DNA of 64,000 bases from Eledone cirrhosa (taxonomy: Eukaryota). A program made the position numbers and the translations under genes. Below the pieces are notes generated by a model. It ran no database searches, had not been told where the DNA came from, and was given only the letters and a program-made list of their open reading frames with translations. How positions within the stretch are numbered: position 1 is the first letter of the stretch; each line of letters starts with the position of its first letter. The stretch spans positions 110,112,001 to 110,176,000 of the forward strand of contig OZ024744.1 of assembly GCA_964016885.1 (NCBI GenBank), written 5' to 3'. Positions 41,484-41,968 of this stretch are shown piece by piece.

Positions 41484-41840
41484 ATTAGAAATTAGAAATT
41501 ATAAGCTTTCACCGTATTTTAGACTAAAGAAATTTCTAGCCTGATAGTGGGGTTTATAACCCTCGGAGAAATGGAAAAAGATGAGTGTTGCCGTACATGG
41601 GAGTCGAACCCACATCTTTGGTTATCCAGACCAATGTGCTACCATTACACCAATACACATGGGATGTGTATTGGTGTAATGGTAGCACATTGGTCTGGAT
41701 AACCAAAGATGTGGGTTCGACTCCCATGTACGGCAACACTCATCTTTTTCCATTTCTCCGAGGGTTATAAACCCCACTATCAGGCTAGAAATTTCTTTAG
41801 TCTAAAATACGGTGAAAGCTTATAATTTCTAATTTCTAAT
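41484..41840. repeat. Perfect palindrome, 177-bp arms and GGG loop, containing two divergent tRNA-like units
   Basis: Centre cacat-ggg-atgtg (41656-41668); the mirror coordinates agree out to both ends. Confidence 0.93.
41665..41735 (+). pseudogene. tRNA-like sequence (pseudogene or SINE head); mirror copy at 41589-41659 (-)
   Basis: D arm GTGT/GCAC, anticodon arm TTGGT-CTGGATA-ACCAA, 4-nt variable loop, T arm GTGGG-TTCGACT-CCCAT; only 4 of 7 acceptor pairs; T5 at 41745-41749. Confidence 0.75.
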
Positions 41841-41901
41841 TTTCAAACTCGCGCTCCGTTTCAAAAACATACTTACATGTTTACAATTATAATTTGCTTG
41901 T

Positions 41902-41968
<67 letters not shown>

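Follow-up and report, generated by a model that had tools for sequence, protein, structure and literature searches.

A fold-back copy of a tandem-unit repeat with an internal tRNA-like module in Eledone cirrhosa, probably inserted by a Penelope-like element

Structure of the palindrome locus

The locus lies in a 64-kb window of the Eledone cirrhosa genome (the whole stretch of DNA analysed; unless stated otherwise, positions refer to it). It comprises a perfect palindrome of 357 bp with (TA)n on both sides, as a first-pass annotation made from the sequence alone had described. Two 177-bp arms (41484–41660 and 41664–41840) are connected by a GGG loop. The features of the locus and of a related copy in the window are listed below (PLE, Penelope-like element; unit positions refer to the 290-bp repeat unit).

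41468..41483, no strand: left (TA)n target remnant, assigned from the sequence
41484..41660, minus strand: inverted arm (unit 52–228); bounded on the outer side by 3' end site 1, …TTTCTAAT abutting the TA repeat
41661..41663, plus strand: turn of the fold-back, GGG (unit 49–51), just upstream of tRNA position 1
41664..41903, plus strand: forward arm (unit 52–290), terminating at 3' end site 2
41665..41735, plus strand: tRNA-like module (pseudo-tRNA; ARAGORN, Rfam RF00005)
41672..41682, plus strand: A box, predicted Pol III internal promoter, assigned from the sequence; 0/13 substitutions between subfamilies A and B
41714..41724, plus strand: B box/T-loop, assigned from the sequence; T-arm with 0/17 substitutions between subfamilies A and B
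41718..41736, plus strand: family-wide 5' truncation and fold-back hot spot (unit 106–124, T-loop to discriminator)
41737..41755, plus strand: pyrimidine trailer including T5, predicted to pair with a purine leader
41841..41903, plus strand: 63-bp tail of PLE type, spanning the interval from 3' end site 1 to site 2; on one arm only
41905..41966, no strand: right (TA)n target remnant, assigned from the sequence
20734..20890, plus strand: copy of subfamily B whose two arms are cut short 3' of the tRNA; the inverted arm ends at site 1, the other at site 2

The locus is a fold-back which pairs 3' end site 1 on one arm with site 2 on the other. The first-pass annotation regarded the whole unit as mirrored; the last 63 bp of the forward arm, however, are unmirrored and correspond to a PLE-type tail, which opens with a small hairpin motif common to subfamilies A and B. 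The turn had been placed 3 nt inside the tRNA, with the acceptor bases GCC replaced by TGT. It is actually located 1–4 nt upstream of tRNA position 1 (41665), and TGT belongs to the family sequence: counts over the dispersed loci retrieved (repeated loci left in) are 140 for GGGATGTGTATTGG and 1 for GCCGTATTGG. The T5 run directly behind the tRNA-like module had been recognized correctly (41745–41749). The purine leader is missing from the palindrome copy and present in other copies.

The tail recurs in a second fold-back of the window, as had also been noticed. This copy (20734–20890) is 78% identical to the palindrome copy and 96–97% identical to subfamily B. The same host repeat was observed at 20440–20635 and 41190–41395 and in reverse orientation at 37565–37620. 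Its presence beside both family copies and beside a palindrome at 37172 reflects nested insertion into the (TA)n of the host repeat. Further fold-back palindromes, most of them in (TA)n, are located at 2419–2528, 16392–16569, 25303–25454, 35505–35923, 37172–37546 and 40292–40572. They show no match to the 290-bp unit and are likely further PLE-type non-autonomous elements. The window also contains Helitron helicase-like fragments (5693–7283, minus strand; PF14214, E 9e-33) and a 44-bp minisatellite array of ~8.6 kb (54774–63354).

The repeat family

A DNA search of the host genome (3.0 Gb) with the palindrome copy resulted in 1,383 candidates; among the 40 scored, the top full-length matches were 97–98% identical. 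The tail motif common to subfamilies A and B has 2,154 exact matches in the genome (961 forward, 1,193 reverse; control 0), and a 28-mer of the tRNA specific for subfamily A has 237. The repeat exists in many copies, which lie in (TA)n; the junction between tRNA-like module and tail is not a chance chimera, which the first-pass annotation had named as a possible objection.

The unit of subfamily A, determined from two tandem copies (loci L026 and L009), has a length of 290 bp, of which 52 bp precede tRNA position 1. Subfamily B was traced from the copy at 20733. Its unit comprises 270–272 bp and contains the same tRNA with a full 7-bp acceptor stem. The mean non-majority fraction per region is 2–3% in A and 3–6% in B. 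The family is a young, non-coding (protein-free) mobile repeat of 270–290 bp with the tRNA-like module in the middle of the unit. A comparison of A and B resulted in 2/65 substitutions in the cloverleaf (unit 59–123) versus 27/87 in the indel-rich region of unit 177–290; unit 128–176 is nearly as conserved as the cloverleaf. With respect to an editing-type excess, A>G and T>C changes per 1000 amount to 5.7 versus 3.9 in A and 6.3 versus 6.3 in B.

One insertion (locus L280, 2628–5412; G000:C4:61.01 Mb) is built up from 10.2 subfamily-B units, which are 96% alike, and terminates at site 1. ARAGORN labels nine of its units as tRNA-Ser(GGA), and the family thereby inflates tRNA gene calls (tRNA-Ser-GGA). 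In one of three sequencing runs, which may be the source data set, the family was found together with fold-back joints; the other two contained only 2 and 3 low-depth contigs. Since an octopus repeat annotation lists 893 unclassified SINE families (PMC13282606), the family may be present without a label in that library or in Repbase.

Insertion anatomy

Two partly overlapping samples of loci were parsed. For sample 1, consecutive entries of the tail-motif list were taken, which gave 78 loci after removal of two duplicates; this selection favours site 2. Sample 2 comprises 76 loci from the first 100 places of the tRNA 28-mer, and its ends were not selected. In sample 2, 108 of 123 outer 3' ends (in tRNA sense) fall into two zones, unit 210–232 and unit 278–290, with 48/123 at site 1 and 60/123 at site 2. 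The zones are 35–63 bp apart (spacing ~35–45 bp in B and ~60 bp in A). Nearly all outer 3' ends run into TA (108/123 in sample 2, 121/132 in sample 1). The (TA)n is a microsatellite target, at which a target-site duplication (TSD) is not discernible. The absence of a poly-A or LINE tail, reported in the first-pass annotation, holds across the parsed loci of the family, in which two sites within the unit abut the target TA as 3' ends.

Inverted loci are frequent (48/76 in sample 2, 54/78 in sample 1), and 41 of the 54 in sample 1 pair one arm at site 1 with the other at site 2. Twin priming is not known to give an inverted arm that mirrors the same sequence and has a second fixed end. Partial tandems spanning a seamless unit junction were observed in 39/76 loci of sample 2, and the 5' ends are ragged (truncated) across the parsed loci.

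The family thus displays the traits of a non-autonomous PLE, namely partial tandems with 5' truncation, an inverted 5'-truncated copy, a tail at one end and a (TA)n target. Passages of PMC8557442 describe PLE insertions with partial tandems, an inverted 5'-truncated copy, a tail of 30–40 bp and (TA)n, and two-site internal initiation is described in PMC11167929. The agreement of two-site ends, inversions, tandems and (TA)n with these features suggests that the element likely borrows PLE enzymes. The PLE-type integration pattern proposed for the single palindrome therefore extends, in end sites, inversions and (TA)n, to the parsed loci.

The tRNA-like module

The module was called on both arms by ARAGORN and by Rfam (RF00005, 43.5 bits), and the A and B boxes are present. 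The first-pass annotation was right in this respect; its term "head" is not appropriate, since unit sequence precedes tRNA position 1 in other copies. The module has the traits of a pseudo-tRNA: a GGA anticodon combined with a short variable loop, U37 and, in subfamily A, broken top two acceptor pairs. On these grounds a functional tRNA gene was rejected. The closest of 32 genomic tRNA-like genes is identical at no more than 47/72 positions (60–65% at best), and the D arm is of the Gln type. A cluster of tRNA-Gln-like genes elsewhere in the genome (L365 and L368, G000:C1:168.21–168.26 Mb) includes copies with a CTA (amber) anticodon, which ARAGORN labels tRNA-Pyl(cta).

Pol III transcription from the predicted promoter boxes is likely. 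A long stem formed by leader and trailer is predicted to enclose the tRNA; 8/2000 shuffled leaders pair equally well in A and 19/2000 in B. Covariation gave no support for the fold, with 61/500 shuffles as high (the closing helix was used partly out of register). The folding energy of the whole unit is ordinary (z = -0.42 for A and -0.44 for B). Mismatch counts at m1A58 are 5/105 in A and 2/75 in B, which is no convincing error signature.

5' ends and the RNA template

In both subfamilies the 5' ends accumulate at unit 106–124, between T-loop and discriminator. This zone contains the ends of 57 of the 96 arms reaching it; arms paired in an inverted locus count separately but are not independent. 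The hazard is 0.044 per nt versus a background of 0.0037 (~12-fold). The hot spot is also present in non-inverted loci (12/19), and windows holding the short palindromes of the unit have stop rates of only ~0.005–0.011 per nt. The main pile-up is located at unit 113–119, upstream of the expected RNase Z cut (124). Its position at the T-arm and acceptor of the tRNA points to a folded RNA template, and it likely represents a stall of the reverse transcriptase at the folded tRNA core. Joining of the arms may be aided by CATG/GTAC microhomology.

Of 86 arms, 13 stop around tRNA +1 (unit 47–57, a weak window picked after data inspection), and 73 extend further upstream. Templates therefore usually extend beyond the tRNA. 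The SINE anatomy suggested at first, a tRNA head plus tail copied from a monomer transcript to its 5' end, is not supported by these arms or by a tRNA internal to a tandem unit.

Arms and units of one insertion share their markers. Discordance between arms was found in 4/147 comparisons in A (58 expected from the pool) and in 30/384 in B (138 expected), and discordance between tandem units in 3/101 in A (43 expected) and 20/316 in B (117 expected). Both subfamilies occur within one locus in only 2 of 198 fetched loci (repeated loci left in). Since this sharing is far above pool draws, each insertion likely derives from one RNA or one source locus. In a comparison of circle and multimer templates, locus-private variants were shared in 5/124 cases in A and 16/130 in B.

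A 276-kb satellite

A strand excess of the leader pattern (108 versus 784) led to a satellite at G000:C28:19,440,624–19,716,546 (loci L361, L328, L329, L278, L279 and L341). It extends over ~276 kb and contains ~950 units of a subfamily-A variant, as judged from reading both ends and sampling the interior. The higher-order periods are 1733 bp (6 units) and 2023 bp (7 units). At its 5' end the array breaks off near unit 57 and abuts (TA)n, as dispersed copies do, and the other end has no standard site. One insertion has thus grown into a higher-order satellite. The diagnostic variants of the array are nearly missing in dispersed copies (motif counts of 0 versus 236 and 2 versus 224), which rules it out as master donor and makes it a product of the family.

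Ribozymes and an autonomous partner

In agreement with the first-pass annotation, which had found no convincing hammerhead in the tail, descriptor and Rfam scans of units A and B yielded none. The core CUGANGA is absent from either strand of unit A. The descriptor gave no motif in A or B; it is not fully sensitive, since it found motifs in only 3/9 PLE control loci. An Rfam scan of both strands of A and B up to E 10 retrieved only the tRNA and chance matches, and no ribozyme.

PLEs are abundant in the genome, where a search for the GIY-YIG family gave 10,595 candidates. No sequence common to units A or B and an autonomous PLE was found in 80 PLE loci of several families, a small part of these candidates (best E 0.045). 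Three short tail and leader words had no relevant match in the supplement of PMC8557442, with two of the three TTGCTAAG places inspected. The window itself contains a broken copy of a young PLE (28042–30715, minus strand) with reverse transcriptase, cysteine linker and C-terminal endonuclease. Among 85 scored genome matches, 84 are 98% identical to the PLE protein of the window, with open frames of up to 1217 aa. This PLE has a tandem spacing of ~4.1 kb, and one copy terminates in a tail and (TA)n. Cephalopod Naiads are inactive remnants according to passages of PMC8557442; a PLE family with C-terminal endonuclease and cysteine linker would thus be the likelier helper.

Proposed mechanism and alternatives

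Based on the insertion anatomy and the 5' ends we propose, with good confidence, that the locus is a fold-back of a non-coding repeat of 290-bp tandem units, each with an internal tRNA-like module, and that the reverse transcriptase/GIY-YIG protein of a PLE, acting in trans, likely copied it from RNA into the (TA)n target. The cycle would start with initiation by Pol III at the A and B boxes of a tandem copy. Reading through T5, Pol III would produce an RNA longer than one unit, either multimeric or circular. The PLE protein would then nick (TA)n and, on one RNA, prime at both internal sites. The resulting cDNAs would often stall at the folded tRNA and subsequently join head to head or to the target. 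At the palindrome locus both cDNAs would have passed just beyond tRNA position 1. Several points speak against a PLE: no sequence link to an autonomous PLE was found in the 80 loci, there is no recognisable hammerhead, which canonical PLEs and retrozymes carry, the tail of subfamily A is ~60 bp long versus the 30–40 bp described, T5 follows the tRNA directly, and neither covariation nor the m1A58 counts back the fold.

PLE mobilisation could also be combined with a different role of the tRNA-like fold, which would mainly be an RNA processing signal (for RNase P/Z or a splicing endonuclease) and would stand in for the missing hammerhead in reducing multimers to monomers or circles. We regard this as possible but clearly the less probable alternative. 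It is in line with the lack of a ribozyme in units A and B, with the near identity of the whole cloverleaf, beyond the boxes alone, between the subfamilies, with a stall which implies that the fold likely exists on the template, and with the normal site-1 end of the 10-unit insertion. The pile-up at unit 113–119, however, cannot be a cut end, because it lies upstream of the RNase Z cut, and few ends are located at tRNA +1. In addition, unit 128–176 is nearly as conserved, the leader-trailer stem would be expected to hinder RNase P/Z, and Naiads and most Chlamys elements are mobile without a hammerhead (passages of PMC8557442). In a related and equally tentative proposal the element would be a "tRNA retrozyme" without a ribozyme. 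It would depend on a PLE and on Pol III, and its tRNA mimic might serve both as internal promoter and as a signal for processing or circularisation by host enzymes in place of the hammerhead. If true, such an element would stand to PLEs as SINEs do to LINEs and TRIMp3 to LTR elements.

A classical tRNA-headed SINE with a monomer transcript from tRNA +1, inserted by a PLE, is improbable. The A and B boxes are intact, the palindrome copy turns at unit 49–52 and there is a small excess of ends at unit 47–57 (uncorrected p 0.002), but the windows 81–91 (10/105) and 26–36 (8/71) are nearly as high, most arms go on upstream and about half of the sample 2 loci cross a seamless unit junction. As a general rule this model is largely refuted by the upstream read-through; it may apply to a minority of templates. 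Slightly less probable still is spread at the DNA level, in which a Helitron/DINE-like or satellite-derived element would have multiplied by rolling-circle or repair events, with the palindrome as a replication fold-back. Tandems, TA sites and the 276-kb array do exist; the strict tRNA-sense polarity and the stop at the tRNA core, however, fit reverse transcription, and the array is not the donor. Least probable of all is a microsatellite-targeting LINE (e.g. of the Dong/R4 type) with twin-priming inversions: (TA)n targets, 5' truncation and the recent activity of Dong-R4 LINEs in an octopus genome (PMC13282606, Table 1) would agree with it, but the inverted arm repeats the forward sequence in mirror image and has its own fixed end at the second site, there is no poly-A or repeat tail, and the 3' ends are internal to the tandem unit.

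Comparison with known systems

The following comparison refers to passages of the cited papers. The closest known systems include the SINE-like repeats Sm-alpha and Sj-alpha of Schistosoma, which are likewise tRNA-derived, with a link to tRNA-Gln-TTG (PMC2770079), and both tandem and dispersed. They apparently give rise to multimeric Pol III transcripts with a promoter internal to the processed unit (PMC6765202). In Sm-alpha a Pol III promoter of tRNA origin occurs together with tandem units and a hammerhead (PMC2770079, PMC6765202, PMC8490949). This hammerhead is of type I, whereas none was found in the E. cirrhosa family. No report of PLE-type two-site ends or inversions in Sm-alpha was found in the passages concerned. 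The first-pass annotation had called a PLE-dependent tRNA repeat unusual. Sm-alpha is a precedent for a tRNA-derived, tandem and probably PLE-related repeat; the novelty lies in the hammerhead-free, tRNA-bearing variant with PLE ends, of which no description was found in the literature searched, where one paper pairs "non-autonomous Penelope" with "tRNA".

Non-LTR retrozymes share ~300-bp AT-rich, non-coding units that occur from monomers to long arrays (PMC7229834; bioRxiv 10.64898/2026.07.22.740005), and they have been proposed to be non-autonomous PLE derivatives or passengers (the same two sources and PMC4209133). They are, however, defined by a type I hammerhead per unit and are often homologous to pLTRs, neither of which was found in the family. 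In the available text of PMC7229834 and of the bioRxiv paper (0 occurrences of "trna") no tRNA module is described for them. Membership was rejected for lack of a type I hammerhead per unit, although the short, tandem, non-coding units extending to long arrays fit.

Non-autonomous Chlamys PLEs such as MRC1 are similar in being non-coding, in their pLTR-like head-to-tail insertions and in belonging to a clade mostly without a hammerhead. They differ in their green algal hosts, in sharing 3' sequence with autonomous families and in that no tRNA module is described for them in the passages concerned (PMC8557442).

A Pol III promoter derived from a small RNA within the repeated part of a non-autonomous retroelement, together with a non-functional tRNA, is known from Helenus and Cassandra ("TRIMp3"; PMC10886601). 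These elements are of the LTR type with PBS, PPT and TSDs of 4–5 bp and, according to the same passages, are without ragged 5' ends, inversions or a two-site tail. Ragged 5' ends and inversions versus fixed-end LTRs exclude the family from TRIMp3. It was also not assigned to the tRNA SINEs (SINE2): the A and B boxes fit, but the tRNA is internal and neither a LINE-type tail nor a TSD was discernible at the parsed ends.

We therefore classify the element, with good confidence in PLE mobilisation, as a putative non-autonomous PLE set apart by a tRNA module without a recognisable ribozyme. The family provides genomic evidence that a short, tRNA-derived, hammerhead-free element inserts with the full PLE signature. 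Its young copies, numbering in the thousands, preserve a record of the PLE reaction in vivo, with two priming sites, apparently on one RNA, and a sharp stop at the tRNA fold, and the unit offers a testable 290-nt template for studying the origin of tandems, inversions and tails in PLEs. The family also shows that a single insertion is able to expand into a higher-order satellite of 276 kb. Pol III-type passengers, known from LINE and LTR helpers, would thereby extend to PLEs.
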